Assembly (NCBI GenBank): GCA_963924565.1
Contig: OZ004613.1
Span: forward strand, 24,180,001 to 24,244,000
Direction of reading: 5' to 3'
Source of the DNA: Ascidiella aspersa
Taxonomy: Eukaryota
DNA: 64,000 bases
This document shows, piece after piece, positions 3,001 through 47,800 of this stretch (within the stretch, counting starts at the first letter, position 1; each line of letters begins with the position of its first letter). A model generated the notes under the pieces. The model made no database searches. It was not told the origin of the DNA and saw only the letters and a program-made list of their open reading frames with translations. A program made the translations under genes and the position numbers.

Positions 3001-6000
3001 GAATTTCCCGGACAAATGGGAACCCCCTCAGGACGAGGTGCCTCAGGTTGGCGAGGGGGGCCAGGGAAGGAGACGGGAAACTGGTCAGGTTGCAATCGGA
3101 CAACTGAAGGCTGGTCAGTTGGCCAAGTCCGGAGAAGGCCCTGTCGTCAATCAACATCAGTAAGCGTTTAAAGCAGAGGTTCCCAAACTGGGGTCCGCTG
3201 GGCCAACTGGGGTCCGCGGACCACAAGAAGAATTAGTCTTTAAGTTTTTCAACATTAGACTTTAGCGAATGTTTTTAAACATTAGACTATGTTTTACGCA
3301 TTATCTGTCATCATTATTGTCTTTAGGTATTTCTTCTTATTCTATTATACAGCGTTTTGTGATGTTGTGACTCCATAAAGGATCTATTATATCTGCTTTT
3401 AGCGAATCGTTCGAATTAGTTAGAAAGTTGGTACATTAGAAGGAATCTTGACTGCACTAGTGTACTACAGGTAAAATGGGTCAACTGACCCATGAATTTT
3501 TATGGGGCCGCGAAATATCAAAATATTTGCAACGGGTCCACCGGGTAACATTTTTAGAAATGTTCGGGAACCACTGGTTTAGAGGCAATTTGTTCAAGCG
3601 GTGATTGTGTTTACCTTGTGGCGGTTTTGAGTGTTAAAACAAAGAAAGGTTAACACGAAATTGAAAAGTAGAAAAAATAAACAATTGAAAAAATAGTAAC
3701 TTTTCAGAAGGGCAAAAAAAATTGAAATCTAAAACAAGGGTTTGATTATATGTAATCGACGAAAAAGTATAGATCCAATGTCACCAATAGCAGTTATTAA
3801 ATAACTCTCTACGTTAACTTTGGTTCTATACAGCAGTGGTTCTCAAACTTTTTCTTGCAACTCCTTTGAATAAGTTTGTTGGACTTGCCAAGCAAAAGGG
3901 TTTTACTATAATATTCAGTAAAATTGTTGCACACCAGTCAATTTATATGTTTGTTTTAAAATATCATGATCAATTTCTGCATTTTTTGTAATAACACGTT
4001 CAAATATCAGTAGATTAGAATACTTGTAAGCATTAAATTATCAATAGAGTTTGCATACCAAACAAAACCACTAAGCGACGTAATTGGAAAATCAAAAAAA
4101 CGTGCACCCGAAGGTCGCAAAGCACAGTTTCAGAACCGCTGCTATACAGTATACACTATACACCAGGGGTTCTTAAACTTTTTTTATGGCGGACCCCTAA
4201 AATTTTCTTCACCCCCAAGGGGTCCATGGACCCCAGTTTAAGAACCCCTGCTATACACCAATGTTCCATCGGAGTTGTGTGCCTATAATGCCTAACATCT
4301 GTTACAATATGCCTTGTATAGTCCGTGTTTCAAAAATGGATGATTCCGTAAATGACGAATCTAAACCTACTCGGGCGAAATGTACAGGATCGGATTCCAG
4401 CGCAAATCCAAGTGCGTCAGGCTGTCCAGGGCTTGAAAGGTGCCGCCCAGCAAGACGACAATGCGGTTTGCGGCCAGGTTGAGGCGCGTCATTTGCGGCA
4501 ACGATGCCACGAAAACGTCGGTTTCCAAGACGCGCAGACGATTGTCGCTCAAATCGACCGAAGTCAGTTGCGGAAATTCGCTGTAACGAAAACGCATAGT
4601 GGTTAACCCAGTTGTGGCCAACCTTGTAGAGCCTGTGCGAAAAGTTGGGCATTGTACTATTATAAGTGCCGCAATATACCCTGAAGCTGGGTTGTAATGA
4701 CAATATGTGATATTTTTGGTTCAAAATATCGCTTTTTCACCAATTTCATCATTTTTAAATTAAAAAAAATTTTTTTTTTTTTAAGAAACTAACTTAATTG
4801 GAGTTTATCGTTGTAAATAAGGTGTGAAGCTTTTCTTAAATTTTTATTGTGCCCTTCGCGAAGCACAACTAAGTGCTACATTGGATCGGCCTAATTTTGT
4901 TCCCAACTGCATAGAATAAGCAAGCTCCGCGCGTTAAAGGAAAACTTATGACAATTTATTGGTCTATATATAGGACGCGTGGAAACTTGCCGAAACTCTC
5001 TACTTTCCGAATATTATGTTCTTGTTCTTTTTTCCCAATCCCGATTTTTGGACCATTGTGTTTATTCTAAGTTCTTTGGTGTACTGTATTGCTTAATATA
5101 AAGTGACATAAATGACCAAAGTTCAAATTATCGGGTCAAAATGCATTTAAAAATAACGTAGTGATATACAAAATAAATGTAGGCCTATACTAATTAAAAT
5201 AAACTGCGTAAATTTGCTATGCTTACGAGGTTTCATAACTTGCTATAAATTTGATATAGCAAATACACGAACGTATACTTTGCAAAATAAACTGCTTACA
5301 TTACAATGTTTCAGAGGTTCCATAACTTGCTATAGTTTTTAACACATATTTTTGGGTTTTTCAGAACATGCGAAGATTGAAAACAACGTCAACCTCACAT
5401 TTCTGTTTGGAAGCTATGCCACAGCGAAAAAACAGACTGTTCTTTTGCTTTTTCCTGGTATTTGTTTGATTTGTTTAGTTTTTCCGTCACGAATTCAAGC
5501 CGGTGCGCGTTTAACCCTAACATGAAAGGTCGAACCTGATCGAACACCGCTATCGACCCAAGCCGTCTAGGACTCTAGGTTCATGTCCTCGCCAGAAACC
5601 TATGTGACTTGTTTCATGCGGTGCTGTGTCTCCTTTCTGTTTACAGTGGGCTACGCGCCGATAAGCCGAATAGTTCGAACCGATATTTTTCGAGGTGCTC
5701 ATAAATTATAAAGTGCCAAAACGAACTGTCTTAATAACGTAGGACGGTTTATAGAGTATTACAATAAAAATTGGAGCTTGATATTACTGTCGAAACTATT
5801 TGGAACTGCGTCTCAATCATGTTGTTTAAAAACACAATGGTGAAGTGAAAATTACTTTTAAATAAACACTTGGCAGCGTACAAAAATAAGAAAAACTGTC
5901 GGGAATATTTACATTTAGAATAAAGTCGCTGATAAAGCGTTTGCAGCAATTTTATAAACTTTAGCAAACATTGTGACATGGCTGGTGCAGTTAAAGTAAA

Positions 6001-6589
6001 AGCTTAAAGCTATAGGTGCATAGGTTAAGCCACGTAGACGTTTACGATTTATACAATAAAGCCAAACTATGTCTACACACGCGCGGTAACGTGGCCTCTT
6101 TTCAGCAAGGCCGTAAGCTATTTTGCTCCGCCCCTTAGAGGGCAATTAGAGGGCGGGGGAAAGCTCTTATGCGAGGCCACAATCTGGGATAAAAAGTTAA
6201 TCTCGAGGCCGTAATAGCCTTTAACGCCGGATCAGCGTTTAGATAGCTCACTAAATCTTTTACCTGAATGTTCCGCTTTCGATATTGCTCAACCGGTTCT
6301 TTGAGATATCGAAGTAAGTCAGGCCAACTAGACGACTTAAGTGCTCCGGACGAAGCGTCACGTCGCCCAAGACCCAGTTTTTCCTGAGCGCCAGGGTGCG
6401 AGTGCGTGCCGGAATCAGAAAGGGCAGCACCTCGTTAATGTCCAGGTCCATGCCGGTACAGGCGACGCGGTATCGCAGAGGATCGCAGCGACAGAACTTA
6501 TCGCGACCGCCAAGGCAGGCGGCGGCGCCGTCGGCAATGGACAGCACAATGTTAACCAGCGTTAGCTTGGCTCCAAGAAGGAGTTTCAT
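1..6589 (-). CDS. LINGO1: LINGO-family leucine-rich-repeat receptor, 5' part (signal peptide, LRRNT, LRRs); continues beyond window start
   Basis: Exons 6589-6264, 4580-4371, 3140-2985, 91-<1, all GT-AG and all phase 2. Spliced protein MKLLLGAKLTLVNIVLSIADG...CRCDPLRYRVAC...NRIVVLLGGTFQALDSLTHLDLRWNPILYISPEAFSGLGQLTSLQLSDCNLTSFPSPSLAPLANLRHLVL aligns by eye with vertebrate LINGO1 (NKIVILLDYMFQDL...[28 protein letters not shown]). The paralog number is not resolvable. The first coding exon probably starts at the acceptor at 6882. Confidence 0.85.
359..524. mobile_element. Family-1 hammerhead element, degenerate palindromic copy
   Basis: TATGCACGGATCTGTAATG arm plus opposite arm GAAACGTCTTAATCAAGATGATGTCGATCTACTCGACCTTTTTGGCTTTG (461-510). 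Confidence 0.65.
2350..2925 (+). repeat. Same dispersed repeat family, diverged copy
   Basis: GGGACGATTGGGGC..TCGACGTTTGGA..GGGTTAGGGG..GGTCTTATTCCCAACTGTG. Confidence 0.55.
3174..3576. mobile_element. hAT-type MITE
   Basis: TIR CAGAGGTTCCCAAA / TTCGGGAACCACTG; 8-bp TSD GTTTAAAG / GTTTAGAG. Confidence 0.75.
3834..4141. mobile_element. hAT-type MITE
   Basis: TIR CAGTGGTTCTCAAACT / AGTTTCAGAACCGCTG; perfect TSD CTATACAG. Confidence 0.85.
4164..4250. mobile_element. 87-bp hAT-type MITE
   Basis: Perfect TIR CAGGGGTTCTTAAACT; perfect TSD CTATACAC. Confidence 0.9.
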
Positions 6590-6904
6590 GTCTTTTGCGG
6601 TGATGCTTTGGCGGCGGGAGAGGCGACTCTTCGGGGTCGCAGCATCATTATCGCCGACGCGACGAAGCGATGCGCTGCTGGGTCCTCATCAATTTTTCAC
6701 GCTCAGCGGATCCGGGATCGCACGAATCGATATGTGGGGAAGCGGGAATTTGGATTTTTCTCGCTAAAGCGTCGTGACGTATGACGGATGGCGTTTCGAA
6801 GGTTTGCAGCAGAAATGTTGCCGGTAATTTTAAGGTTTATAACGATTGGCCTGTGACTCACCTGTTTCCACTTGCTAAGATCTGCAAAAACAAACCTATT
6901 AAAC

Positions 6905-16764: not shown

Positions 16765-18322
16765 GTTTAAACAATATTACAGATTTTCACCAGCGTTAGC
16801 CTAAGAAGGCTGTCCACAATTTGTCCTGCGTGTTGTAATGACTTAATTAAGTCACTATTTTGAAATGACTATACTTCTGTGGGACAAATGACTTTGGTAG
16901 AAATAAGCGTTTTTCAAAAAGCACGCATTTTTAAATTGTGTTATTTATCTTAATTTTTTAACATAAAACAATTTGATTGGTGTACGTTGCGTTTCTGAAA
17001 TCGTTTACTTGAGTTGTTCCTCATAATTATAATCGAACGAGTTGATCAGAGTTTATGGTCTGGAATTTAAAATGACTTGTTTAAAACACTGCTAATTTTT
17101 CTTACAACATTCCCTTTGCTTTTTTGTCGCGATCCAGCACAAGGATAAAGGATGTCCGCTAACTTGATTACTTGAAGGTATGACAAAGTAAAGCGAAACA
17201 AGATACGGTGGTTGCGCGACAAGCAGGCAAGGTTGACAAGGATTAGCAGTGCTCTTACGTCATTCACTTGCATAAGCCTATTTCACGAACTCTGCCTAAC
17301 TACGATACGAGGATTACTACTTTAAAAATAGCTTCTAAATAGAATAGTTTCGAATTGCGGTTATGTTGCCAAACAGTATGGTTCTATTGATTACTCGATT
17401 GTAGGCTAATCATAAGTCAGTCTACAGAACAAATACAGTAACTTTAAGGCTAAACCTAATCTTGCGTTGATTAGGCTGGGGGGTTCGGAAAATATTTGTG
17501 GCATGTTACAAGATCCATTCGTTTAAATCGTATTACTTAACTACAACAGTGAATGGATAAACGAACTTTTTACTTTTGTAGTAGATTTTGCGGCAGAACT
17601 TTTTTTTGATCAATTTTTTTCACTGAAACACCCTTTTTTGCAAACTGGTAGTTAATGGCCACGTATTTGTTGCCCAAAATTAATTTCTGCTAGTTCTGCT
17701 TTCGTGCGGTGTGCACTCACAAATAAAAGCAAAACCAAATAGGTAGAGGTTAAACAATTTTGTAATTTTTAGAATTATGCAGTATCATAATTACTTTAAA
17801 AAGCTGGATTAGTGGAATCGCTATATAGCCTAACTATTAACATAAATTACTTTAATTTTAAGGATTATAGGTAAATATATATACATATATTAACCTTTAT
17901 ACTATCTGTTGGTAAGACGAACTACCTTTTTTTGCCACGCCTAATAACATTATTATTCTTGATATTTCATAAAGAAAATGACTGTTTTATTAACTCTACA
18001 AACCGAAATTTCTAATGAACTGCTTAGTACGAAACTGAAGTGTATCGTCTGTGCGTGAACCCAGAGTTTCCAGGAATATTTTTCAAATCGTAGAATAAAT
18101 AGAAACCGGTACGTATTGTTTTTAGGCAATTTTAGAACTTTGTAACCAAGAAGTTAAACTCCACAATATAGTTGCATTTTTTCATTTTTCTTCTTATAGT
18201 TATACAAAATAAAAAGTTGACGCAAGCTTTGAGTTGAAAATTAGTCCTGCTAAAGCAGAATTGCAAGTCGTACGACCAAGAATGACGTTAACGGAGAATG
18301 TTATATATGATTAATTATGTAG

Positions 18323-18444
18323 GTACACTATGCACGAATCGGTAATGTAGCTTAATAATAAATTGCAAAGCCAAAAAGGTCGAGTATATTGACATCATCT
18401 TGATTAAGACGTTTCGATACGAGCTTGTATCATCTTCAGTTAAT
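18323..18444 (-). mobile_element. Hammerhead-bearing Penelope-like non-autonomous element, family 1 (single arm)
   Basis: Near-identical to 58657-58746; the tail ends in TGCATAGTGTAC as in the copies ending at 56912 and 58858. Confidence 0.75.
18403..18444 (-). ncRNA. Minimal type-I hammerhead ribozyme, intact core
   Basis: Minus strand reads ATTAA CTGAAGA T GATAC aagctc GTATC GAAAC GTC TTAAT: stem I (5 bp), CUGANGA box, stem II (5 bp), GAAA box, rudimentary stem III, GUC triplet. Confidence 0.88.
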
Positions 18445-20934
18445 GTGACTGAGAAGCAATTCAAACATCAGTTATAAGAGATGGTGATTAATTAAATTGT
18501 TCGCATTTTACAAAAGCGTTTTTCATTCCGGTCAACCTCATGGAAAAGAAACTCTTTGTAAGTTTTAAGTTGTATTATTTTTTATGATTACACCAAGTTA
18601 AATAAATTTATTTAGGTAAGGGTAGTTTTCGATAAGCTGAAGTTTTGTACCTTCTAGGAATCTAGGCTTAGACGAAAACGCACGTAAAATGTAGAGTTTT
18701 TAAACTTCGACAAAAAGAATATACTTTGTACTAGGAATGATATCAGAACGTTAAAAATGTTGTTTAGAGAAGCGTGTTATTATTTATGTTGAATTAAGGC
18801 CCGACAGCAGTTGATAAGTATGTTTTTCCATAAATAATACCAACAATCGTTTTATTATAAAACAGTCGCTTAACAAATTAAATATCTTCTCGAATGCGAA
18901 ACTAATTTAAGTCTAAACACATGTGGGCAACGTAACCACCAAAAAGTAACTTAATTGCTAGTATTCTAGGCGCGGGTAGCAATTTCAAAGTTTATCTTGA
19001 TGAAAATGTGTCGTCACAAAAGGTAAAAAATATGACATCGCTTTCACAATGGAATAGAGTTGCATGCGGCGAAGGTGGTAGAAAAATGGCGTTGATTAAG
19101 TAAGTACGAAAAGTACGGTTAAAGCATATCTAAAAAAATGGTACCTTACTCAAAAAATGTGAAATCGTTTGGCTAAGTAAGGTCGTTCTTTTACGAGGAC
19201 GTGTTACTTTCACGGTTTCCTAAGGGCCCATCACATACCGAACCTACAAGGTAAAAAAAATATTTCGAAAAATAATTTCAAGTGAACGTTTCTACGATAG
19301 ATGTCAGCAACATTAGGACCATTACTTACGCTGAAAATTAAAAAAGGGGGCAAATTAAAAAAATAATGTTTTTTTTTTCAAACTACAAAGTGCACATCGG
19401 AGGTGAGGGCGATTTGATCAAATAAAAAGCCTAAACTAGGCGAAACCACATCGACATATTTAGGTCGGCAAGACTAGAACTTCGTTATATACTGAGAATT
19501 TTATAACCAGTCGTGGAGGCGACGAATAAATTTGAATTATTTTCCAACAATAGCAGACACGGAAAGCCCTCAATTGTAAAGAGTAGACATAGGTATAAGT
19601 TTTGAATATGACACCACATTTCAAAAACAATCCCTCGCCGCATTTTCGCGTTGCCAACTCTGCAAACCGCTGGGCTTTAAAAGCATCAACATTGTTGCGA
19701 TAAGGAAATAAATTTTATATAGTTCGGGTAAGACCTTCGTACACCATTTACCGGACTATTGGAAGCTTAGGACGATTTGCCATGTCCGATGGCAGTTTGG
19801 GCACCGATCTTTCTGGAATTGTGTCACTGGACTGTTATGTGCATTGTTTGGTTTTCAAGTTTGGTTACAGCGGGTATTGGTTGATTAGATAAGAGGATAA
19901 ATCTTATTCTGGCATTTACCCATCATTCTAACGGATTCAAGTCGCATTCCGACTCATAGTTTTAGTCAAGTAGCGGTTGTATTCCGACGTTGTCGTTATT
20001 CCAAATAATTAAATTACACAAGCAAGTGCTTTATTTCCACATTCAAGGCAATTTTCAAATTAGAAAGATAGGCTTTGAAAAACAGAGATTCTTTACAGTT
20101 TCGGAAACTCCAAGCAAACCCTTGGGACACTCTTTTTAACAGGTAACACATGACTTACATTATCGACAGTTCTAATATGGATCGTCTGGAACAAACAAAT
20201 GGTTGGTGACAGTGGAGGTTAGTTTCACCTGACGAAACCTAATTTTCGTGGCGGAGCGGAAAACCCAAAAAACTCGCAACGGATGACGATGGTTAAGTCG
20301 GAAAGAAACATTGCTTAAATCATTGACTTATTGATCCTATGGCAGCGAAATCCGAACAGAAAACCGCCGGATCAATTTTACCGCTAAAACCCAATAACTT
20401 GGGGATAACAAGGGTTGAAGTTATTGAAACAAGTTAAATTTCATATTTTTGATAAATGAATCTATTTTTTTTTAAATTAATCTATTCAATTAAACCAAGT
20501 AGGCTTAAAGAACCTTTTAAAGGTCAAATTGTTATATAATTTGTCGGATTACAAAACTGCTTTATAAAATACTTCTATAAACAGGAGAAAATTATACATA
20601 CACAAAACCCGGCCCAAACTTCTAAACTATAGAAATATCTGGCATTTAGGCAGTTGAACTTATCTCGGTCCAAACCGAATGTAAGGGCACGTCAGAGCCC
20701 TAAGTAAAAACCGAAAAGTTGCCATATTGGCAGGCCTTTTAAACTGGCGTGTTACCGATGGGAATTGCGAAAGCCTGTTGTTGCGGGGAGATCTAGACAA
20801 GAAATTGTTGTGTTCTGTTATCACTTACAACATGAACTGTTATCACTCCAAGAGTAACGCGCGATCGTATTTTTGACCTTTCTGGCGACCCCAGTTTTTT
20901 CCCTATACGCACACACACGCGCGCGCGGAAAGAG

Positions 20935-21151
20935 ATTGAATATTAATATGTTTTTAAATAATAATTTTGTTTTTAGAATTTGAAAAATGTAGACCAGTCC
21001 TAAGACGGTGGTAATTTTTTTCCCTGGGATGAAATTATTAATTTAATTTTCATGGCGAATATTACTATTGAATATTAATATGTTTTAAAGTATTAATTTT
21101 GTTTTTAAAATTTGAAAAATATAGTCCAGTCCTAAAACGGTGGTAAATTTT
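20935..21151. repeat. Direct duplication of ~85 bp (period ~132)
   Basis: ATTGAATATTAATATGTTTT...CCAGTCCTAARACGGTGGTAA twice. Confidence 0.85.
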
Positions 21152-21433
21152 CTTCGGAAAAAATTATACGTAAATAAGTTTATTTTGGCGTTAAAGTAAT
21201 CTGGCAGAATTTTCTTTTTTCGATGACCAGCTCTTTGTCCTAGTGTCTATAAACAGTGCTCGAATTTTTACACAACATTCAGTCAGGTAAATTCCCTCAC
21301 CGGAGAATATTGACGTCACGTGACTGCAGGGATTTGAAGGCACCATTTCGCTAGAGCGATCTCACGATCTCCAAGGGATCTTTCGACGTCGCGTTTTAGA
21401 TAGGCCCCTATTCCTAAATTCCTTTACCTAAAT

Positions 21434-21714
21434 CAGTGATTCCCAAGCCTCGAGAGGTTGACAAGTGTGCCGCGAAGCTTTTTCTAATTTCTGAAAATAG
21501 AGTATTTATATTACCAATAGGCATACCGGTACACGCAAGCATTTTAGACTTAAATACGCACTATTCATTACAAATTAATAATTTTGAGACATTTACATCT
21601 AGTTTGTCGTGTGTTTAGTGCGAATGTAAAAATAATATTTTGTTGTTCAGTTAAAAGGGTGCCACGAAAGATTTTTTTGGTGTGCTGCGAGCCGTAAAAG
21701 TTTGGGAACCACTG
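21434..21714. mobile_element. hAT-type MITE
   Basis: TIR CAGTGATTCCCAA / TTGGGAACCACTG; TSD ACCTAAAT / ACCTAAAG. Confidence 0.8.
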
Positions 21715-22782
21715 ACCTAAAGCGTTCCCTCATGCTGTGTTGAGCTTTATTTAAAAGCGCAAAAAAGATTCTTTAGTCGAAAGACTTTATTATGGTGAGA
21801 ATACCAAAAATGTCCTCGCATCACTGATTACTTGTTTTTGAGAACCACTGATCCATCTCCTTCAGTATAATTTTCGTCATTAACAGCTTTAACTTAGGTA
21901 AAGAAACAAACCTGTTTTCGGAATAAACACGGTTTAAGTATTAGGTAGGCCTACACTTTAGCGTTATGATTACTAACTCATCGTTGTCTACAACTCGTGG
22001 CATACATGTAAGCAAGTTCGACTGTAACCTCAATTATTCTATATAAGTATAAATAGATGTTTCTTAGCGACGTCCCTCATTGTATCATTAAGTTACCAAG
22101 TTAATGCTTTCTAACCTATTTCTATTAATTATATCAGTACGTTTTATTTGTTTTATGCAAAATATTTACCCAAAGGTGCCGTATAAATAATGGCACGTTC
22201 GGCCTTCCTTATTTGCCAATTTAAACTAAATTTACGCATTTTTTGGACTTCAGCTCCTTATTTGTGCACAAGTTTCCGAGATCAACGAAAATTGCAAAAT
22301 TAGCGTTATATATACCATTTATTTTGTTAATAATGATCTAATGCCGTCATCAACTCGATTTATCGCCTTGGTCGTATTTGGTCTTTTTTGTTATATTTAG
22401 TATACTCTTTAATATAAGACCAATTTGAGCCCAATTTTTTAGCCCTTACCAATATCTGGATGACGTATAAAACACGCTATTTTTCGCGTCGTACCAAACG
22501 TAGATACAAATGCTATACTTTCAAACTAAAATATCACAATAAGAGTTACGCAAGAGTCTGCGGTCTAAACTTTAAATTAAATCGAATGACAAATGCCTGT
22601 TTTTCGTCGTCTCCCCAATTCTCTAATAAAGAACCTATACCGACATAAATATGTACATAAAATTTATTGAAAAAGTCATAAAATACAAATTAATGAAGTT
22701 TCAAACAATTTTTTCGGCGCCGGCCGAATGGTTGTAAACCATGCGATCACATTGTCTTTATAGAGAAATCTCTCGAGATCAC

Positions 22783-25700
22783 TCAAAACATGAGTGGATC
22801 GACTTGCAACTGTTTGGGGATGTTGCAAGTGTACAGCCAAGCTTCCACCTCCTCTTCTTCTGCGTCAGTCATCTTGTATAGGTGCGGGGTTCGATCGCAC
22901 AACTGGCGGATATCTTCGTTTGTAATCAGTGGCAGGTCGTCGGGAAACTCATAAACTAAATCCAGCAGTTGTGGTTCCAGATCGAAAAACCTGGAATCGT
23001 CTAACTGCAAATCAAGGAAGATTTTAATGCCATATAAAATATTGAGTAAGAACTAATCAATGAAAATGATTTACCTGTATTTTTCCTAACCGCCGTGCAC
23101 CACCGGAAACGCATGGGACGAGGTTAAAAGGTTCCGCCAGTTCCTTAATTTCATCGAGGAAGTCAACCTCTTCCAAAATTGTTCTTCTCATCCTAGTTGG
23201 CTTCCTCATCTTGCCGATGACAGAAGATGAGGTGCAGCGATGCTCAGGGTCATCTTGAATCCTGAACAACTTCTCCCTTGTTAAGGCTCTTTGCATGCTT
23301 GCCATCCAATCTTCCTCTTTTTTCTTATCCAGTTTTGGTACATGGACAGTTAGCGACTCTGAAATTGCAGACGACTTACTTTTGGGCACCATTTTAAGCG
23401 CATCACTCAAGTCTTTCGGTGTGATTTGAAGATTGGATCCACAACGCTTGGACACCGGTCGTTCCAACTTGCTTGGCTGTCGCATTTTTGACTCGTTCTT
23501 TACTACCATTTGAACCTTGTGGTTGGTCGGCGCACGGAGTTTAGAGGAAGAATCAACTTTATTTGGTGCCTTAAGTCTTCTTGGTGGACAAAGTTTAGAA
23601 GGAGAACCATTGGGTGCGTTGTGAGAGCTGGATACAGCTGTCAACTGAGAAGTGCTCACTTTTATCGCTGTCTTGATTGGGTTTGGTGTCCGCAGTTTGG
23701 AGTGAGATCCAGCAGCAGCAAGTTTTTTTGTCTTTGGTATTTCGCCAAGTTTTGACGGAATGGAAGACCTATCTTGTGGTGATTTTTTAGATCTTGCCTT
23801 CTTCGCCAGCCGTTGTGCGTCTTTTTTTGCCTGCTGTGCCAACTCCTCTTGGTAGTACCGTTCCCAGTCTTCTTCAGTGGGAGACTGGCGAACGTGTTTT
23901 TTCTTTGGTAGTTGATTAATAGATTTCATAATTTCATCAACTACAAGAAGTGTATCTTTGCTCGTTGTATCTCCGGGATTACGGAGGGAATTTATGTCCT
24001 GTCTTTTGCAATATGCCCTTCTTTGCAGTCGCTGTGCATCCTCTTTTGCCTGTTCTGCCAACTCCTCCTGGTAGTACCTCTCCCAATCTTCTTCGGTGGG
24101 AGTTGTTCCAACGATTTCTTCATTAGGCAATTTGTTAATTGCCTTTATGATATCGTCATTGCTGAATTTCGGGATTTTGACAAAAGGGTGCTTCCTTTTG
24201 GACCATTTCTGAAGCCAATATTCATGTTCTGGATCAAGGAATCCTCCTAGTTCATCTGATCCTGGATAGCTTGTGACGACAACATGGGACTTACTAAGTA
24301 CTGGGCGCAGTCTTTTTGCCACTACGGAAGATTTGTCGGTTTTATTTACTTTCTTCGAAGTACCAGCCCTTGCTGGAAGAGTAGTAGTTTGTGTTCCTTT
24401 GTTGAACTTCGACCTGGGTTTTAGCGCCGGCAACATTCGAACAGTTCCAAAAATAGTTTGGGTGAATGTGGTTGCGCTTTGTCGTTTTTGTAGGGTTCCA
24501 GTGTCCGATGTTAGTACATAATCCGGTTGAGTTTGAGTTGTTTGTGTGCTTACAGGCGAACCAACGACTGCTACAGTCTGGGTGGAAAGAGTAATACCAG
24601 CACTTTTGGAAGTCTGAGACGCTGAGAGCATGGGACGTTGGAAGGTCTGAGTTGAAGTCGACACAGCAAGTGACTTTGAACTTTTCGAATCATGTCCAAT
24701 AGTTTGAGTGAAAACAGGGGCGGTTGTCGAAATAGAGGTCTGTGTGGATGCGGGTTTACCAACGGATTGGGAAGTCTGGGTTGGAACTGACTTGAGGATC
24801 GGATTAACCGTTTGGATACGGGCGGGCATGAAGCATTTTCTGATGGTCTGTGTTGGAATTGGCGGTACGACAAACTGAAAGGTTTGGCTTGCGACAGATA
24901 GGGATTGTGCTTTTACTAAGTTAATCGTCTGGCTTGAGCTGGATTGAGTAATTGGGCGCTTTACAGAGGATTTGGCAGGTTGAATCGTGCAATGAATGAA
25001 GAGCTGCTGCGGTGATTTAGACACGGCCTTGATATTTTGGCTGCTCTCTGTTAAACGTAGGGGGAGAGTCGGTGATTCTAAAGGTGACTGGGCTAAACGA
25101 TCCTGTACCCTACGCTGCTTTACTTTAGTCAGAAGAGCATTAGCCTTGGTCAAGACATTCCTTTCCAAGTGAGCAAGGAATATTTCAAACATGTCGGAGG
25201 TGATGATAAAATGTACGCAAGGTCCATTAATCGGAAACCCTGTTTGAAGAAACACAACCATGTCAGCAGGTAACAGGAACGGTTCGAATGGTAATTTGGG
25301 AGAAGGTTTCGCAATGGACTTCACGGCGACATTTGATAGACCTATAAATACACAAATATGGGTTAAAAGGTGTACAACTAAGCCCAAGGCAGTAATCAAT
25401 ATAAAATCCCACAGCAATTACCTCGCAATCCTATATTTTCGAATTTCTTTCTTGCCGGAATGCAAATTGTCAGCAACTTATCGTTGTTTAGGTTGCTTGA
25501 AATCTTTGTGAAAAAATATTGCATGTACAAATTAACAAATTTAGACATAGACACTTACAGGTAACAAAAAATGGTATTCATACATTGAAAGCTTAGTCAT
25601 AGCAACGGCTTACGCAGAAACGTAAGAAAAAGGGCATTACTAAGGGTTATAGTTCTTTAAAATTAGAATAAATGTTTGCTTGGTTTATAAATATAGCATT

Positions 25701-27780
25701 TTCCGAATAAATGTTAATTCGCAGAAAATTCTGTCTGTCATTAAAACAAGACTATTAAAAAATGTAGAGGTAGTTTGACGCAAAAGGACGACGTTTTCTT
25801 TTTACATTTTTTCCACCACTTTTTACAAGCCGACGTTATGATCTTGCTTGTAGTTGGTGCCGTATTGTATTGTCATACCTTATATGAAATGAGGCTCACA
25901 GGTTAAAAAAGTCGTATATCCTAGTACAGTGGTCGGCAAATTTATTTGTCGCGGACCAAAATACTCTTTTTAAAGCTATTGAAGGCCCACTACGTAAAAC
26001 AACTACAAAACAGGGCGGATCCATGATATTTATTTTAAGTTGGAGGCATTAGAATGACGTCACAGAGTTACGTCATGAAACAATTTTTCTTAGAAACACT
26101 TGTTGTATTAAACGAACTCGTGAGCAAATATGAAGCTAAAATCCAGGTGGCGAAACGTTTACCTTAGACCAGCGGTTCTCAACCAGTGGGACATAAAAAC
26201 ATTTGAGGTGGGCAACAGACCGATTTAAAAAAGTTAGATTTAGTTTCTTTTGTGTATTTAATTTTACAGGAATAATGGCTTGGGTAAGAATTAAAAAAGA
26301 TATGTAAATTTATTGTTCAGCTGCAAGTATCTCACTAATGCACGGTTGAATTAATAATTTCTGTTTTGAAATATGTTCTGCTGTGCTTTGTTCTAAATCT
26401 ATTTTACAGTTTTTTCTTTCAAAAAAATGTGTTGGGCCACAGAATTTATTTGCAACGTAAATGGGTCACGAAAGAAAAAAAGTTGAGAACCACTGCCTTA
26501 AACGTATTAATGCATAAAAGATTAAAACTATAGCATTTCCATAGCGGATGGCGGCAGCCGCAATCACGTCAAAAAAAAACGCTCGAAACACATAAAAGGA
26601 ATACATTATGTTAATCCTGTAGTGAAATCTGGATAAATGTTACTCACGATACATTAGCAATATTACAATGTTCAATAAAAGAAATACATAAACTAGATAA
26701 ATGTTGGTAGAAATTGTATTTTGTAGGGAGTCTAAGTCAACCCAGCGTTAGTCTGTGGACACCAAAAAAGCGTGAAATATTGCATGGCACCTTGATGCAG
26801 AAAACAATGTCATAATATAAAACAAAACATACTATAAAACGATAATATACGCGCGAATCGCAAAAAAATTGCGTTTACATATAGTTGAAGTTGAAAAATA
26901 TAGTTGTCGGTTCCTCACAGCAACGCATATATACAACAGGTGTTGCTCACAGTGCCACATTTACCACGCTGGCCTGATCCACGGTGAGACAATATAACAT
27001 TTTTTAGACACACCGACTTTTTAAATACCGTACAATACAATATATGTAGGCCTACAGCATTCACGCGGCCCATAACTAAATAATAAAACAAAAACATTAA
27101 AAAAAAGCTCGCGGCCCACTTAATATGGCTCTGTGGCCCACGGTTTGCCGGCCACTGTCCTAGTACATAACGTTGATTTTTAGGAATAGCAAAATATCGC
27201 ATTCAAAAGTTCAGCCGCATCCTAAAACTGGAGAATTTTGTTTTTACTTATTTTTAAGAAAACTTAAATTAATGCAGCTATTCCGATCAAACAACTGAAA
27301 TACTGGTGTAACCTATGCTTTACCTTCAAGCCATTTTCAAGTGCAGCGTTCCTGGAACGCACAATTCTTCGTAGAAAGGATACAAACCTAAACAACGTTG
27401 CAAAAAAACAAACATTGTAAGATAGCTGTTAAAACTCAAGTGTAGATTATGTTAAATTACATGGCTATCGAAACAAAAACATTCAAATAAATATAAAGTT
27501 TGTTAATTCATAAACATATTTACCTTTCCACGAGAACACATCCACCCTCGAAGAGTGCGATAAACACCATCACGCTGACCAACAACATAGCGATGTTAAA
27601 AGCTAGGTTGGTCTTCAGTTTTACCAATGAGTCAGGGACCATTGAATAGAAGCATTTCTGCAAAGCCTGGAAATCATTCGCAGGCTGCTCTGGTTCGAAC
27701 GTAATGCCGAACAACCCATTGAAGGGCTCAAACAGTTTCGAGTCGATTCGAATAAAAATCATAGCTTTCGCTTCTGCCAT
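22783..27780 (-). CDS. Uncharacterised single-pass membrane protein (~963 aa) with TQT-motif array, basic SxIP-like region and duplicated EEDW modules
   Basis: Exons 27780-27524, 27387-27324, 25503-25422, 25341-23075, 23004-22783; GT-AG, phases 2,0,1,0, no stops; AATAAA at 22668-22663. The internal duplication differs mostly at synonymous sites. Linking the first two exons to the rest is less certain than exons 3-5; an alternative first exon is 25600-25559. Confidence 0.75.
25927..27157. mobile_element. hAT-type non-autonomous element hosting a nested MITE
   Basis: TIR CAGTGGTCGGCAAA / TTTGCCGGCCACTG; perfect TSD TCCTAGTA. Confidence 0.85.
26170..26495. mobile_element. Nested hAT-type MITE
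   Basis: TIR CAGCGGTTCTCAAC / GTTGAGAACCACTG; TSD CCTTAGAC / CCTTAAAC. Confidence 0.85.
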
Positions 27781-28865
27781 AAATTTCTGTCGTTCCCGAC
27801 AAAAGACATTGAACGAATATGACAAAAAATGTAAAAAAAAACTTTGCCCTGGCGAAAATCCATTGTTTCAAGTCGCTTGTGACGTAACAGAATCTTTGAA
27901 AAACTACTGAATTTAACAAACTTTTCGGAAATTACAGTCAAATCTTTTACAAATACTGCATTAAAACACCCATTAATAAGAAAATAACACACCTATAGTT
28001 AATTTTTTTAGTATTACTTGTTCATGGCAAGAATAAAAGCATACAGCCACATGTAAGAAACCGAGCGTCGTATTAAAAATCAAAATATTGGCACGCTGTT
28101 TTTAAAATTGGCATACGCGGATACTGTATTTTGTTTAGTTTTTTGTTGTTCTGTAGTTAACACCGACTGGTTAACACTATATAAAGGACACCTATATATG
28201 CTATATGCAGCCAACCAAAGCTTCAAAAGTAGTCCGCTAAACTTGTTACATTTTTAATTCAAAATGGTAGGTAGGACAGCAGCAATTATTTGCTATAAAC
28301 ATTTGCTTGACTAATGCCTTATGTAAGAGGCAGAAAAACAGTTTAGACCAGTGGTTCAAAGTTGGCAATATCTCCCTTTTTTGCATTTTCTATTTTTGCA
28401 TTGAAGAAATACAACGGGTGTCGAAAAACCGTGCACTATTGTCTAATTCAGGGTGGGTGTGCTAACATCACAAAATTCTGAGTTACTTTCCTAAAAAAAT
28501 CATTGTTAGTCAAAGTCTGGAAGCAAGTACCAGGGAAATTTGGAGCAAAGTACCAGGGAAATTTGCATCAACCCTAATTGTTCTTTGTGCTTTGTAAAGC
28601 CCAATTAAGTCAAGTATTAAATGAGAAAAAACAACTATCAATTAGTGAACAGTTTTTTTTAATAACGTCATCACAAAACTACTTAATTTCCTGTTTCAAC
28701 AATAAGGATAGTTTTAAAAGAGGTAAATACCTAAATCCAATTTACAATTGCCATTAAAGGGTTTTTGCTATAAGCGTATGATCCGAAATGTTTCCAAACA
28801 CGTTTGCATAATTATTATACAATTTACATCATTACACATTTCTATTTCAGCTTAGTAAGTTGACT

Positions 28866-29266
28866 CAGGGTTGCCAGCTAGGATTTTTTAACGCCAAATT
28901 TGAAAATTTAGGCTTTTTTAAACCCCTTTGGATTTTATTTTTTCAAAAAAAAAAATCGAAATGAACTTTGGCTATGTTAGGCTTTTTTGGGTTTTATTCA
29001 AAAATTTCGTGAGTGTTATATTAAACAGAAAAAGGGAAAACCTGACAAAAAAATCTCAAAAAGCGAAAAATAGCCAAGAAAAATTTACAAAAACAAAAAA
29101 CTTGAGAAAAATTGCCACAAAAAGAGAAATTCAATGTACCAGCATGACCATGTATTGCATTTTTTCACAAGCAGAAGCATGTTAGAGTTTTTATTAGATT
29201 TGGCTTTTTTTGGCTCTTTTTGAGGTAAGTTTTTTTTGTTGTTGTTTTGACTATCTGGCAACCCTG
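28866..29266. mobile_element. hAT-type MITE (CAGGGTTGCC ends)
   Basis: Perfect TIR CAGGGTTGCCAG; perfect TSD AGTTGACT. Confidence 0.9.
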
Positions 29267-29579
29267 AGTTGACTATGTCCAACCCGCATTTCTTTCGAGC
29301 TATCTCTTGTGGTTTGTGTGAGTACAGCGGTGAGGATAATGGTAGGGTAACAACACGTCCCCTTTTAACAAAGTAAGGCAAATAAATGGTCTTCCAAGGA
29401 CACTGCAGAATGCCCATGTGCTCAATTTGCATATATTGCGTTATTAGCTTCTGGCATAGTAAATATACGAATTTGAAAAAGAGGCTTTGCATTCTATTTT
29501 TGTTCATTTTTGGTGCGGAACATTCCTAAAATTTATAGATCTTTGCATTACACCTGATCATCATTACTGTATTTGTTTT

Positions 29580-29780: not shown

Positions 29781-32700
29781 ATGATGGCCACTGCAGAAAC
29801 CGCTAACGACGAAATGGATTACGACCGCTGTCTTAACCGTTCAAATAGCAGCGGCGGAAAATTTTTGCAAGTTTCGAATGGAATAAATGGCGGTACTTTA
29901 AAAGAAGAAATCAGAACTCCCATGCAGCAGGTTAGTTCTACATCTTTGTAATACTGTATTTGGTATATCATGGAAACATAATATGTTAACGCTGTCATTG
30001 CTTTACTTTTGAATCAGTCTGCATTGTGTGGCAAGTGCACGCCAGAAATTTTCTCGAAATAAATTTGTGTGATCACCTGAATTGGGATATTGCACACCTA
30101 AATTTCTTAAAAAAATGCTAAATTGCTGTAGGATTTCCAACTTAGGGTGTTAACTACATAATTGCACACTGCACACCTAAAAATTTGGTTCTGCAACCCA
30201 AGATCTAGGTGTGAAGTGCCATGAAATGCAGACTGGTAGGTGTGCACCCAATTTTTTTTAAGAAGTTTGTGTGCACACCTAAACTTTAGAAAAAAGATTG
30301 TTGTAAGTCTCTGACACCTCGGGTTTGCAAAAACGTTTGATAACACATCTGTAAATTTGGCGTTTTACAGACAAAATCTTGACGAAATGTACCATTAAAT
30401 GACTTATTTATTTGTGGTACGAACAACTAAATAGGCTTGGTGACAATCTAATTTGCATTATGTCGGAAGTGCATGTCAACAAGCATTTTTAAGTATTTGC
30501 CAAAATATTATCTGAGTTTATTTGAAAACTTCACAATTGACAAAAAGCTGATGGATGCTACCTGAAACCAGCCAAAATCTTATCGAACTTTTTGGTGAAA
30601 TATCAGGTGTAGAGCATTACTTTTAATGCTCAGGTGTTTATTCATGTTTTTTATAATTTGTGGCAAAACTCGGGCATACTTTCGCACAGCTATCATAAAT
30701 GTCTATCATCATTACTACATTTAAATATGTGTTAACATGGCACAGACAAATCAAACATGATTTTATTCTATTGGTATTTAAGTATTTGGGTAATTATTTT
30801 TTTAAATTTTGATCAAAAGCTTTCAGTTTAGTTCTGATAATATTAGATTTTATGGAACCTTGGCTGAATGTCGTCAATCACCCCTGAATAATTCATTGAC
30901 CAGCACCAAATATCTAATCTAATAGTTGAGATGCATTAGTATTTAATTATGTCTACACTTTTGAATACAGATGGGGGGAAATAATAAGAGCCTGAAAATT
31001 TTTTAAACAAATATAATCTAATGTTGTAAATTGCTGAGATAATAGATTGTACTACCAACTTTTTTAGGTAAATGTATCATGCAATTGATTTGAGCACATG
31101 GTTTTACCACTACACCCTTCTAGGCGGCAATTAGACATAAATATACATTATTTTAAATTAAAGGTTATTCCAGAAGTAATTGAGCTTAATGTTGGAGGGG
31201 TACATCACACAACATCGTTATCAACACTGCAAAAATGCCCTGAATCAATGTTAGCTGCTATGTTCAGTGGAAGACACAGGCTAAATACTGATGGAAATGG
31301 AAGGTGATTGTGCCTTAAATTAAATTGCAAGGTAACTTTGTAGGCACAAAGTTGCTTTTGTGGTTGATTATTATAAAACATGTACTACAGTTTGGTAGTT
31401 AATACCATTCCAGTTTTTTATGTTTCACAAACAGTGTTTTGTCTTTAAAAGATTTTCCACAAAAAATAGATAACTTTTTTTAAATACTAAAAACCTTTTA
31501 TTATTTATCTAGCTACTGTGTTACTGACAGCCAATATTCTAATGCTTAACAGGTTGTATAACACTAGGCATAAATTGTGCAACAAAGTGTCTTTAATTCA
31601 ATTTCTTGTAAACATTGCTTTAGATATTTTATCGACCGCAACGGTGATCTCTTCCATTATGTGCTGAATTTCCTAAGACAGGGCGAAATGCCCGGTCTGG
31701 CCAACTGCCTGAAAGTCTACCAAGAAGCACAGTTTTACAACCTTCAGTCGATGATTGACGCCATGGAATTCCTTCAACCAATTGCTGGAGAAAAGCAAAA
31801 GAGAAACTTTTTGAAACATGTAAATATGTCTTTGGCATCTTTGCAAAGCTTACAATGCTTGCACGCATAGGAGCCGAACGTGGGTGTGCAGAGCGTTTTA
31901 TAACGCCCTGGCTTTCTTGTAGGACGTCCAAACGCCCTTGAATTCAACCAAGTTATAAATACGTGATAAGAATATCAAAGCCCATACAGAAGTAGGTATC
32001 ATTTTGGACGTTTCGAATAACTCTTTATTCATTTTCAACATCATAACTCTTATTTTCAACATGATGTGGAAAATGAATAAAGAGTTATTCGAAACGTTCA
32101 AAATGATACCTGCTTCTGTATGGGCTTTGATATTCTTATTACGTCTTACTACAACCTCCAACCATTATGCTCCAAAGTTATAAATAGATGTGCAAAATAA
32201 TTTCTGAAGCACAGTCTTAGTTAATCAAAAGTGTTTAAAATTTTCTTGAATAACCATATAGACACACGGCCATAGAATCCTCAAACTATGTTTTTTTTTT
32301 ATGTTTTATGCAATTTTTTTTCAAAATATTGTTACGTTTTGCTCATTTCAATAGAAACTTTTTTAGCCCAAGGTGCGAAAATGAAGTTTTAAAAGGCGAA
32401 ATAGCTGGCACGATGATAACAGACAACAGCTGTTATCTAAGAGCTCACATTTTTTTATTTAATTAACAGGCAATTTTCCACTGTCTAGAAAATAGCGCTC
32501 TGGAATTTAAGTTTGGCGCCTATGCTTGCACATATATGTTTTTGTTTGAGATTGGAGATTAAAGTTATTACTGCTCAAACAAATGGCAACAAAATGTAAG
32601 ACTAAAAAAAAAGATATGTAAAACAGCATTTATTAAACTTGGCATAACACAGTTGCAAAGCTTACAATGCTTGAGCGTATAGATCAGGGGTTGTCAACAG

Positions 32701-44826: not shown

Positions 44827-47800
44827 TCACCCGTCGCCCAGTTCCATCATTTCGTTGCGCTTCTGCTTAAGGGCTTCCAAGTGGAGTTTGAGCTTGTCGT
44901 AGTGACCCTTGCTCTTGCAGTGCACCACCTGACCGGCCTGCTGCGTGCTGTAGAACTTGCGGCAAATCTGGCAGAAGTAGCCCTTTGGGAGAGAGAAACG
45001 CGGCGGACGCATTAGCATCGGGTGCATATCGTGGCTACACGATCGTTTTTTTTTTAGCTTTTTTAAATAAGATGAAAACTTAACTTATAGTTTTTAGGAT
45101 TTTTCAAACTCGATTAGAATTGTCGATTTCGCAAAAGAAGTAACTCAATCGAAATCCAAGTTGGAATTGCTTTTAATCAATTCACATTTTGTTTAGAAAC
45201 TAGATGAAGTCGATTTTTTCTAATAAGAATTACATAGCGTGTCAACACTTCGTGCTAGCTCATTAGGCATTTTATTTCAGCCACTTAATCTCAACTTTGT
45301 TCATAGCCGTTGAGCATATTTCAAAAATTGAAAATTAGATCAAACAAAAATAAGAACACGTGGGAAAATTACAAGTTTTAAAATTAAAATTGCCAGTACA
45401 AGTAAAATTGTCTAGTTGACCGAATCTGTCACACACAAGAGATAATCGGGTATAGCTTCTTGCAGTGCGTTTACGACAGACCGCTTTGGTTCTTGGTAAA
45501 TTGGACTCATGATTGACAAATACCCCAAAGCTTACCAAGTTTAACGTTAAAAAAGGAAAATCAACCAAAACATATTATAACTTGATAACATATAACAAAA
45601 ATCGGCACAAATGTTTGGTTAAATTTGTCCCCATAACTCCTGTTCCAAATTCGGGATTTTTAAGAGAGACTGTTTTCGTTTTCCTTACTGACACAAGCCA
45701 TAGTGAATTCTAAGGCCGGGATTTAGCGGTAAATCAAATTTCTCGCATATAGCCCTTACCTCCATAGCTTTTATAGCGCACTGCCCAGCAGGATTGTTGG
45801 CATCGTAGGCTGGTAAGCGGTATCTGAACGGATCATCAGGAAACGGTGGTATCTGGATAAGTAAAATGGAATATCCTCACATGAGGTCGCGACCTTTGCA
45901 GGGTGTCTCACAAGTTATACGAGTCGAGAGTACAGAAGTTTTACCCAAGTGACATATACGAAAAATGTATCTTTTTTGAAACTAAAATGAACCAGGGCTG
46001 CGGAATCGGATTCGTGCGCTGTACCGAACTCGAAACTAATTAGGCAACAAACTGTAAATCTTAAAGGTGGAATAGAATGTGGGTGGTATTCTTCTAGCAT
46101 GTATTGTGGGTGGATGAATAGTATGACACCTTTATTCTGAGTTGAATGCTGAATATAAACCTTAGTTACGTAAATGGATGAAATACAGGTTATTTGGAGT
46201 CAAACCACATTTGGCTCAAGACTCGGATTCAATTTTTGGCCGGATTTAGAATCGGGTTATTTTTAATACACTTCGCATTCTGGTTAAAACAGTACAAAGA
46301 AAAATTGTGAAGCGCACAGCGTAATACTTTCAAACTAAAGGGTCCCGGAAAGTTGTAATGAATTAAATAGGGCCGCACACTGAAAAGGTCAGAAATTCCG
46401 GCGAGTAAGCAAAACTTCTATTACCTAGTCCCAGAATATGCTAATCTGAAACCTTTTTAATATTTTAATAACAAATAACTTCTTTTTATATTGCTAGATT
46501 TCGTAGTGAAAGTGTGTTGTAAAATGTTGAATATTCACTTTATGTTTATCTTACGACTTAGATCAGTAAATTAGTTAAAATATTATATATAGAAGATTGA
46601 AACGCTTCCATTATTTTAATCGGGTGCGCAAATTTTCAAATCAAATTCACTGAAGTACTATAGAAGAACTCAGCAAATACTATAGTAAACCTAGTTTATA
46701 GAGACAACTGGCTATTCAATGCAGAACTTACATGTATTTTCTCGCCTTTTTCGTCGTCGCGGTCCACGTCGAACCCATTGTCGGCCGGTTCTTCTTTTTT
46801 ATGCCGTTGGCCTTTGCAAGGCAAGATTTTATATTTTTCGAAAATATATTATTTTTCAAATAGTAAACAACGAAATATCGTAAAGAACTTGGCAGGTAAA
46901 TATTCAGATTAATGATTTGCAGATTGATGGTATTACAAGTATAGCTATTAGATCAAAGGGTTAAAAAACGTGAATATAACTAAAATTAGGTATTAGGTAT
47001 ATATAATAAAATATAACTAAAGTTAGGTATAATTGCGCGAAGCGCGAAAAAACTTGCGTTCATAATTTGTGAAAATATAATCTAGGAGACTTGGGATGAA
47101 GCATAAAAAATAATTGGCACACTTCTCGAAAGAATGGTCACTTACAAGATTAACATAGTAAACGAATTGTGAAGGCTAATGATTTTAATCAGCTGTATGG
47201 CGAAAAGTTCGCCAAACGGGATAATTTTTTTCTTGTATTCGGTTTAAGTAGGCAAAAAATTGGAATTTTAAAAGGGTCGAAATACTTTCGATGATGTGTT
47301 TAAATATAAAAGAAGAATATTTTTATGCAGGACAAATTATTTAGGTTTGGGAAGCCATGACTGGGTATCAAATCATAATTAATTAATACAATTAGATCGA
47401 ACGCATATGCCAGGGATAATTACTACCTGAAAGAATTCAGGTTACCGCGGGTAAGTTTAGACACGGAATGGAATCAATGCGCGACGCCCTTGGAAAATCA
47501 AAAACGCACAGTTTACAACCTCAGAAAAACATTGTAAGAAAAAAGCTTCGGACCAAAAATTATGTTTATATTTTCATCGCCCAAAAATAAATGAATTGTA
47601 ATTGAGGCCGCTGTTGTCGTTATTTCGATATGGACCGCGCTCAACCTACCACTGTTGTGTCCATTTCGCCGCCTCTTCGGACGCTCGTCGCCTCGGCTGT
47701 GGTCGGAAAATTTACGGGCAGGGGGAGGGGGGTGCTCCGCGCCCAAGGGCGGGGGGTCGGAGCGCCGTTTCTTGGGCGCCTTGGCCACGCCGATCCGGGG

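Follow-up and report, generated by a model that had tools for sequence, protein, structure and literature searches.

LC8 binds motifs of 8-10 residues that carry a glutamine anchor with a flanking threonine, and in doing so pairs two client chains (PMC12057147). The closest known system is KANK1, a soluble protein whose disordered linker L2 has a cortical spacer role and contains about 15 individually weak sites, mostly with non-canonical anchors, joined by 3-4-residue linkers and arranged in two blocks with a hinge (PMC12803091, a preprint). According to that preprint, the sites do not bind singly, and 15 LC8 dimers build up a hinged rod of ~53 nm in a cooperative manner; the paralogue KANK2 is described there without the LC8 region. 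In yeast Nup159, a nucleoporin not known to have a membrane helix, strong and easily predicted tandem motifs with 4-5-residue linkers form a rod with Dyn2, so that the period of rod-forming clients lies near 12 residues (PMC12803091).

Other clients are organized differently. The zinc-finger transcription factor ASCIZ/ATMIN carries numerous QT motifs, separated by linkers of 3 to 41 residues, on a disordered tail, and its heterogeneous, partly filled complexes go with these uneven linkers (PMC10046861). RSP3 of the radial spokes combines tandem TQT, TQTQT, IQT and TQI sites, five in number and 17-31 residues apart (PMC3392930), and is not known to have a membrane helix. The membrane protein L-MAG has a disordered cytoplasmic tail that is dimerised by DYNLL1 through a single non-canonical site (PMC7072810).

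Here we describe a gene within a 64,000-nucleotide stretch of the Ascidiella aspersa genome (the window) whose product contains 14 QT motifs, most of them regularly spaced. Judged from its sequence, the array probably serves as a cooperative LC8 rod of the KANK1 type on a predicted membrane-anchored orphan protein, a reading to which we give a probability of about 0.65. The array resembles KANK1 L2 in its presumably weak single sites, short linkers and two blocks with a hinge, and short paralogues of the gene are without the array as KANK2 is without its LC8 region. In contrast to KANK1, for which binding was measured, the array here has QT anchors, lies behind a predicted membrane helix and is read from sequence and structure prediction; the two families share no sequence homology. 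Tandem sites and short linkers are likewise common to this array and Nup159, and motifs in numbers to this array and ASCIZ/ATMIN, whose zinc-finger domain has no counterpart here. Pfam, homologue and PDB searches gave no homology to the ASCIZ/ATMIN, Nup159, KANK or RSP3 families. The protein therefore belongs to neither the KANK1 nor the Nup159 family, while its working mode is most likely similar to that of KANK1 L2 or Nup159.

Gene structure and transcription

A five-exon model on the minus strand encodes 963 residues free of internal stops, and every intron has GT-AG ends (Table 1). The joint between exons 1 and 2 is marked by 32 reads (RNA run X3) with a loose end at 27389 whose letters match 27526-27547, and introns 2-4 were placed by RNA depth, GT-AG ends, frame and paralogue comparison. 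Stranded reads from the same run, of which ~6% was read, span ~22700-25500 as well as 27330-27500 and are oriented as expected for a transcript of the minus strand. Because the reads bear paralogue alleles at many sites (47/47 at 22951), transcription is assigned to the family as a whole, and the window copy is not singled out. The private changes of the window copy amount to 22 synonymous at 357 sites and 21 non-synonymous at 1230 sites, a ratio of 0.28 that indicates purifying selection. Intron 2 contains a high-copy short insertion (26170-26495), which is missing in several paralogues, has very high depth in DNA runs and is probably a MITE, to judge by these traits.

Table 1. Positions of the gene, its parts and the surrounding duplication in the window
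Feature	Positions	Strand	Details
Duplicated unit	17709..29560	.	common to other copies at 82-89% (nt); ends vary from copy to copy
Exon 5	22783..23004	-	encodes the acidic C-terminal segment with the stop; AATAAA lies at 22668-22663
Exon 4	23075..25341	-	2267 nt, aa 135-890; stranded RNA cover throughout; contains linker, QT array, conserved core, helical repeats, basic low-complexity stretch
Second EEDW helix repeat copy	23795..23938	-	84% nt identity with 24017-24102
Conserved core	24035..24364	-	aa 461-570; dN/dS ~0.14; ends in predicted helix containing EEDW
QT array	24386..24931	-	Q at model aa 272, 287, 299, 311, 323, 335, 347, 366, 377, 389, 401, 404, 429, 452
Block B	24539..24649	-	four motifs at 11/12/12 (most paralogues 14/12/12), behind a 17-19-aa hinge of variable length
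Block A	24701..24886	-	six motifs, exact 12-aa period; 0 indels in 11/11 intact copies
Intron 3	25342..25421	-	GT..AG ends kept in 12/12 copies; interior with 1-nt and ~32-nt indels; RNA depth 5 at 25364 vs bin means of 23-31
Exon 3	25422..25503	-	acceptor placed by AG conserved in 12/12 copies, frame, and RNA depth falling to ~0 above 25520
Exon 2	27324..27387	-	basic segment right behind the helix; RNA depth 14 in bin 27329-27500
Exon 1 (coding part)	27524..27780	-	starts with the ATG at 27780 and covers aa 1-86; includes the hydrophobic helix and an N-terminal segment under strong conservation (dN/dS ~0.1)
Predicted membrane helix	27529..27606	-	aa 59-84; Kyte-Doolittle 19-residue mean up to 2.64

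Predicted membrane helix and topology

The original prediction had placed the array at a membrane. The hydrophobic start of the 786-aa stop-to-stop reading frame (25417-25342) was considered as a membrane helix and rejected, because this stretch is intron 3 sequence, with frame-breaking indels in paralogues and low RNA depth. A membrane location is suggested instead by the helix predicted in exon 1, 2.1 kb upstream of that false hydrophobic start. It is the only stretch above 1.5 on the Kyte-Doolittle scale in the 963 residues, and it is hydrophobic in the short paralogues too.

The segment directly after the helix (aa 85-107) has six K/R and two D/E, compared to two K/R before the helix. The tail consists of K and R to 15.5% and holds three sequons versus ~5.7 expected. 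Due to this charge bias and composition, a cytosolic tail is favoured. As ~58 residues precede the helix and a signal peptide is absent, a lumenal tail is possible, if unlikely.

The array and its spacing

All 13 QT motifs of the original prediction, nine of them TQT, were recovered in the same order on the minus strand. A further TQT, absent from the earlier list, overlaps the eleventh listed motif at 24535-24530 and brings the array to 14 QT including 10 TQT, located at 24931-24386 within a single open frame (25417-23057). Successive motifs are separated by 15, 12, 12, 12, 12, 12, 19, 11, 12, 12, 3, 25 and 23 residues. Seven of the 13 intervals are thus exactly 12 residues, as had been claimed, and one more is 11.

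To estimate how far chance could account for this, the 191-aa region was shuffled 20,000 times in its own composition. The shuffles contained 4.3 QT on average (maximum 12) and 0.8 TQT (maximum 6), and none reached 14 QT or 10 TQT; the region was picked after the motifs had been seen, and the remaining 772 residues contain just one QT. Seven equal intervals of any value occurred in 0 of 90,380 random QT placements.

The residues between the motifs have diverged, as originally described: outside positions -1, 0 and +1, units are 10.7% identical in amino acids and 31% in nucleotides. Tandem Repeats Finder detected no tandem array in the QT region apart from a 20-nt pair at 24929-24948. Together with the near-background identity between units, this led us to reject a recent tandem repeat. 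The Q and T of the array are encoded by mixed synonymous codons, and this anchor is what all units share. Position -1 is T, S or I in 14/14 motifs, and position -3 is valine-sized or larger in 10/14. Over the array, S and T make up 35%, P 7% and V, I and F 17%, with 17 K/R versus three D/E. By composition, the QT-motif region has a low share of order-promoting residues (0.22-0.29) and a charge-hydropathy index near zero.

Selection on the anchor residues

Comparison of paralogues revealed that selection is concentrated on the anchor. When five lineages were compared in pairs, dN/dS amounted to 0.03 at Q0 and T+1 and to 0.54 at the remaining codons of the array, with values of 0.14 for the core and 0.38 overall; these pairs are not independent, and all conservation evidence comes from related paralogues of a single genome. 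Among 11 intact copies, with each distinct variant codon counted once, the 28 anchor codons show eight synonymous and three non-synonymous variants. Both comparison sets differ from this (p=0.018 each), with counts of 46/92 for the 163 other codons of the array and 22/45 for the 78 other Q/T codons. In 12 broken copies, the residue is changed at 19/299 anchor codons versus 435/1723 other codons; L054 was excluded from this count, as most of its array is missing.

The surroundings of the anchor behave differently from one position to the next. Position -1 swaps among T, S, I, V and A in the copies (two synonymous and five non-synonymous variants), while the proline at -4 is well kept. Proline-flanked motifs are conserved as strictly as clean ones, and at the exact 12-aa period. 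Seven indel events were found in the array, three of them between aa 347 and 377 and none in block A, which covers ~31% of the array; the indel-free block is suggestive of constrained spacing. Conservation of the QT spacing had been proposed as a check on the motifs. Among the paralogues of this one genome, Q and T+1 are kept, and so is the 12-aa period of block A in 11 copies; homology searches found no orthologues in other species.

A multicopy family with and without the array

A search of the genome (309 Mb, 75 contigs) yielded 84 matched segments, which are spread over nine contigs and form a tandem cluster on C7, among other places. Long copies with the array share 82-87% identity with the protein encoded in the window. 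Twelve of them were modelled, of which 11 are open, and the same exons are open in 10 of 11 paralogues; a further 12 long copies are broken by stops or frameshifts. A second subfamily of short proteins (~376-387 aa) has the same five exons, helix, conserved core and exon 5 without the array. Its modelling covered four of seven copies in one set, and more short copies were examined besides. The core of the window copy is 51-60% identical to that of the short paralogues. In a tree of the core without an outgroup, 17 long and 15 short rows lie on opposite sides of a single branch (100/100). Because the short forms show the deeper diversity, we infer that the array was gained in the long clade.

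The short loci (L035-L041, L062-L065, L067, L068, L070, L071 and L073) have features of their own. Exon 4 opens with a Q kept in 14/14 readable copies, in the form S-T-Q-V in four close copies. This single S-T-Q-V was considered as an LC8 site and rejected, with T at -1 in only 6/14 readable copies. In a divergent short group (L068, L070, L071, L073), at least three copies carry an extra acidic insert behind the EEDW helix. A divergent, broken relative at L066 (1511-2260, plus strand, and 5535-6406) has a 250-aa reading frame 3.3 kb upstream of a core exon. It retains just the last two TQT, 23 residues apart, and the conserved spacer between them may be a motif of its own.

The gene lies in a larger duplicated unit (Table 1). 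Flank sharing fades gradually over 26 upstream and 21 downstream flanks, and the ends are ragged. Four tandem long copies at L016-L021 (G000:C7:21497001-21557000) follow each other with a period of 10.7-13 kb and are separated by degenerate-repeat blocks of ~0.5-1 kb. No shared second reading frame of at least 200 aa, and no shared transposase, reverse transcriptase or Rep-helicase, was found in 190 kb around 11 copies. An autonomous transposon with defined ends was rejected, as neither a shared transposase or reverse transcriptase frame nor shared termini are present; an old non-autonomous carrier is possible. Reading-frame fragments at L028:1333-2166 and at L071 (2867-4435 and 117-962), presumably of hAT transposase and retroelement proteins by their resemblance, lie near family copies and are not common to the copies. 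As lineage-restricted multicopy families that spread by duplication, primate NPIP (PMC12790995) and fission-yeast wtf (PMC5478263) are comparable; the likeness concerns genome behaviour only, with no homology, and the family here has an overall dN/dS of ~0.38.

Beyond this genome, the family stands as an orphan without detected relatives. At E<=0.001, neither P0001 27-786 (7,991 candidates scored) nor the alignment of the core (7,995 longer candidates) had a homologue. HMMER over 1.84 billion representatives returned one match (P0002), which was rejected as unrelated repetitive sequence. There was no Pfam family match at cut-off, no match in the PDB and no usable match in the Atlas. Structure predictions were of low confidence (pLDDT 42 for the core and 56.5 for exon 5), too low for these models to be used in a fold search. 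A literature search, mostly outside subscription journals, returned no membrane-anchored many-site LC8 ladder and no account of this family.

Probable LC8 docking

The original prediction read TQT as the anchor of LC8 motifs. Anchor, period and selection are consistent with LC8 docking, whereas 12/14 motifs carry at least one disfavoured residue by the text rules of PMC6607443, a ranking that the LC8Pred matrix could change. More specifically, these features are an internal proline in six motifs, a hydrophobic residue at +2 in eight and an aromatic residue at -2 in two; only sites 404 and 452 are clean by these rules. The residues at -1 fall within those tolerated by LC8 (T, S, I, V and A; PMC3392930), and a valine-sized or larger -3 is a rule of the motif (PMC6607443). 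In Table 1 of the latter source, many TQT peptides, mucin ones among them, fail to bind LC8 alone. Since most motifs here break single-peptide rules and many TQT peptides fail alone, weak single sites and cooperative filling are to be expected. Favourable single-site flanks are not required of cooperative arrays, as the KANK1 sites fail singly too (PMC12803091).

A period of 12 residues corresponds to an 8-residue motif plus a 4-residue linker, which matches the linkers of rod-forming clients, and the short uniform linkers, a trait of such clients (3-5 residues, period 11-13), are kept in the paralogues. The array had been predicted to form either a stiff rod or a concentration sensor. Due to the 12-aa period and the individually poor motifs, the rod type is preferred over the ASCIZ-type sensor, which goes with uneven linkers.

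A conserved LC8, its groove strand intact, is encoded in the genome by an intronless 90-aa gene (L055:1495-1767, minus strand; G000:C7:15771355-15771603). Five more Dynein_light matches were found elsewhere in the genome. We predicted a complex of four LC8 chains with two copies of a 39-aa three-motif piece (P0001 205-243), which scored 0.40 versus 0.10 for the best control, with a contact agreement between runs of 91% or higher and a partner pLDDT of at least 54. The mark applied was reached by 51/78 solved pairs and 2/108 mismatched pairs; at scores up to 0.60 it was reached by only 5/78 solved pairs, and all four passing mismatches (of 180) lie in that range. As LC8-peptide complexes are already solved, the pass may reflect memorised structures, and the prediction lends weak support to LC8 docking.

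Competing explanations

Within LC8 binding, the main alternative is that LC8 occupies no more than a handful of suitable sites (for example 366, 389, 404 and 452), so that the array would act as a plain dimeriser or a heterogeneous ASCIZ-like sensor without forming a rod. The many rule-breaking motifs, the spacing of 23-25 residues between the last sites and the two TQT with their 23-aa spacer in the L066 relative would fit such a role. We nevertheless consider it unlikely, given the strict conservation of proline-flanked motifs at an exact 12-aa period and the uneven linkers that accompany ASCIZ-type behaviour (PMC10046861). Docking of another repetitive partner with the same Q-T preference would account for the kept prolines at -4 and the hydrophobic +2 residues, which are unlike strong LC8 sites, but anchor and period both match LC8. 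We know of no such partner, and this explanation appears very improbable. Clusters of S/T-Q define substrates of ATM/ATR-type kinases, and the array contains 16 S/T-Q in 191 residues versus two in the other 772, a number reached by 5/20,000 shuffles. T follows in 13 of these 16, however, and it is T+1 that is under strong selection, whereas the phosphoacceptor at -1 varies and one kept motif is IQT. With SQ alone not enriched (4 versus 3.4) and a fixed 12-aa period not needed by a kinase, phosphorylation as the reason for the array is very improbable; it could regulate LC8 binding.

A lumenal or extracellular tail would turn the array into an O-glycosylated mucin-like stalk. Its S, T and P content would suit a stalk of this kind, and a single helix after a soluble N-terminus, as predicted here, can serve as a type II anchor. 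Against this, the distribution of charges speaks for a tail in the cytosol, the array is rich in K/R and in V, I and F, sequons are not enriched, and selection acts on Q and one T rather than on S/T in general, which makes the stalk improbable. Equally, the period of 12, the TQT faces and the location of the gene in actively duplicating DNA could point to a 36-nt tandem expansion that has decayed and whose motifs have no function, or to a self-folding TxT beta-solenoid. TxT solenoids occur in ice-binding proteins. Decay does not produce conservation of the anchor alone with synonymous change, as is seen here along with near-background unit identity, and a solenoid is at odds with the frequent prolines, the uneven spacers and the lack of conserved turn or core residues. 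We therefore regard both forms of this explanation as highly improbable. On the sequence evidence, LC8 docking is the best explanation, accounting for the array better than a kinase cluster, a mucin or a repeat expansion.

Proposed mechanism and implications

If the array is a cooperative LC8 rod, the helix would anchor the protein and leave the basic tail on the cytosolic side, and each motif would add a beta-strand to an LC8 groove. With 8 motif residues and a 4-residue linker per unit, LC8 dimers could form an end-to-end column along two parallel tails, and the individual weakness of the sites would favour cooperative filling. Block A with six sites and block B with four, with a hinge between them, would then give a hinged rod of ~35-45 nm, estimated at 3.5 nm per dimer from the 15 dimers at ~53 nm in KANK1. 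Such a rod would dimerise the protein and hold the conserved core away from the membrane, while the short paralogues would keep the same core next to it.

At the level of the family, we tentatively propose that an orphan membrane-anchored family gained an LC8 ladder in one subfamily, with the core at the membrane in the short paralogues and on a hinged ~40 nm LC8 rod in the long ones. The rod version may subsequently have expanded beyond 20 copies, possibly as a duplicon that is selfish or acts in the germline and exploits the host hub. If true, the family would constitute a natural experiment with and without the ladder, showing that a young gene can acquire an LC8 ruler de novo. The LC8 rods known to date belong to a small number of conserved, soluble scaffolds. 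If a membrane-anchored protein that is lineage-restricted, as far as detected, bears a ladder of 13 sites, then the design of weak sites, 12-aa period and hinge can evolve afresh. The roles of valency and linker length are directly testable, since some paralogues have the array and others do not, and the hinge varies. Furthermore, the LC8 motif rules would have to be widened, for cooperative arrays, to admit the conserved prolines and the hydrophobic residues at +2.

Other features of the window and genome

Elsewhere in the window, exons on the minus strand at 2900-6685 encode what we take, from its motifs, to be a leucine-rich-repeat protein. An exon on the plus strand (31574-31870) is BTB-like and presumably of the KCTD type. 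Exons at 44827-58117 on the minus strand, among them a Pro/Gly/Met-rich low-complexity exon at 48596-49081, resemble those of an RRM and matrin-type zinc-finger protein, to which we provisionally assign them. A cellulose-synthase-like GT2 exon, which in a genome with spliceosomal introns points to a tunicate, is located at L061:1186-2076 on the plus strand.
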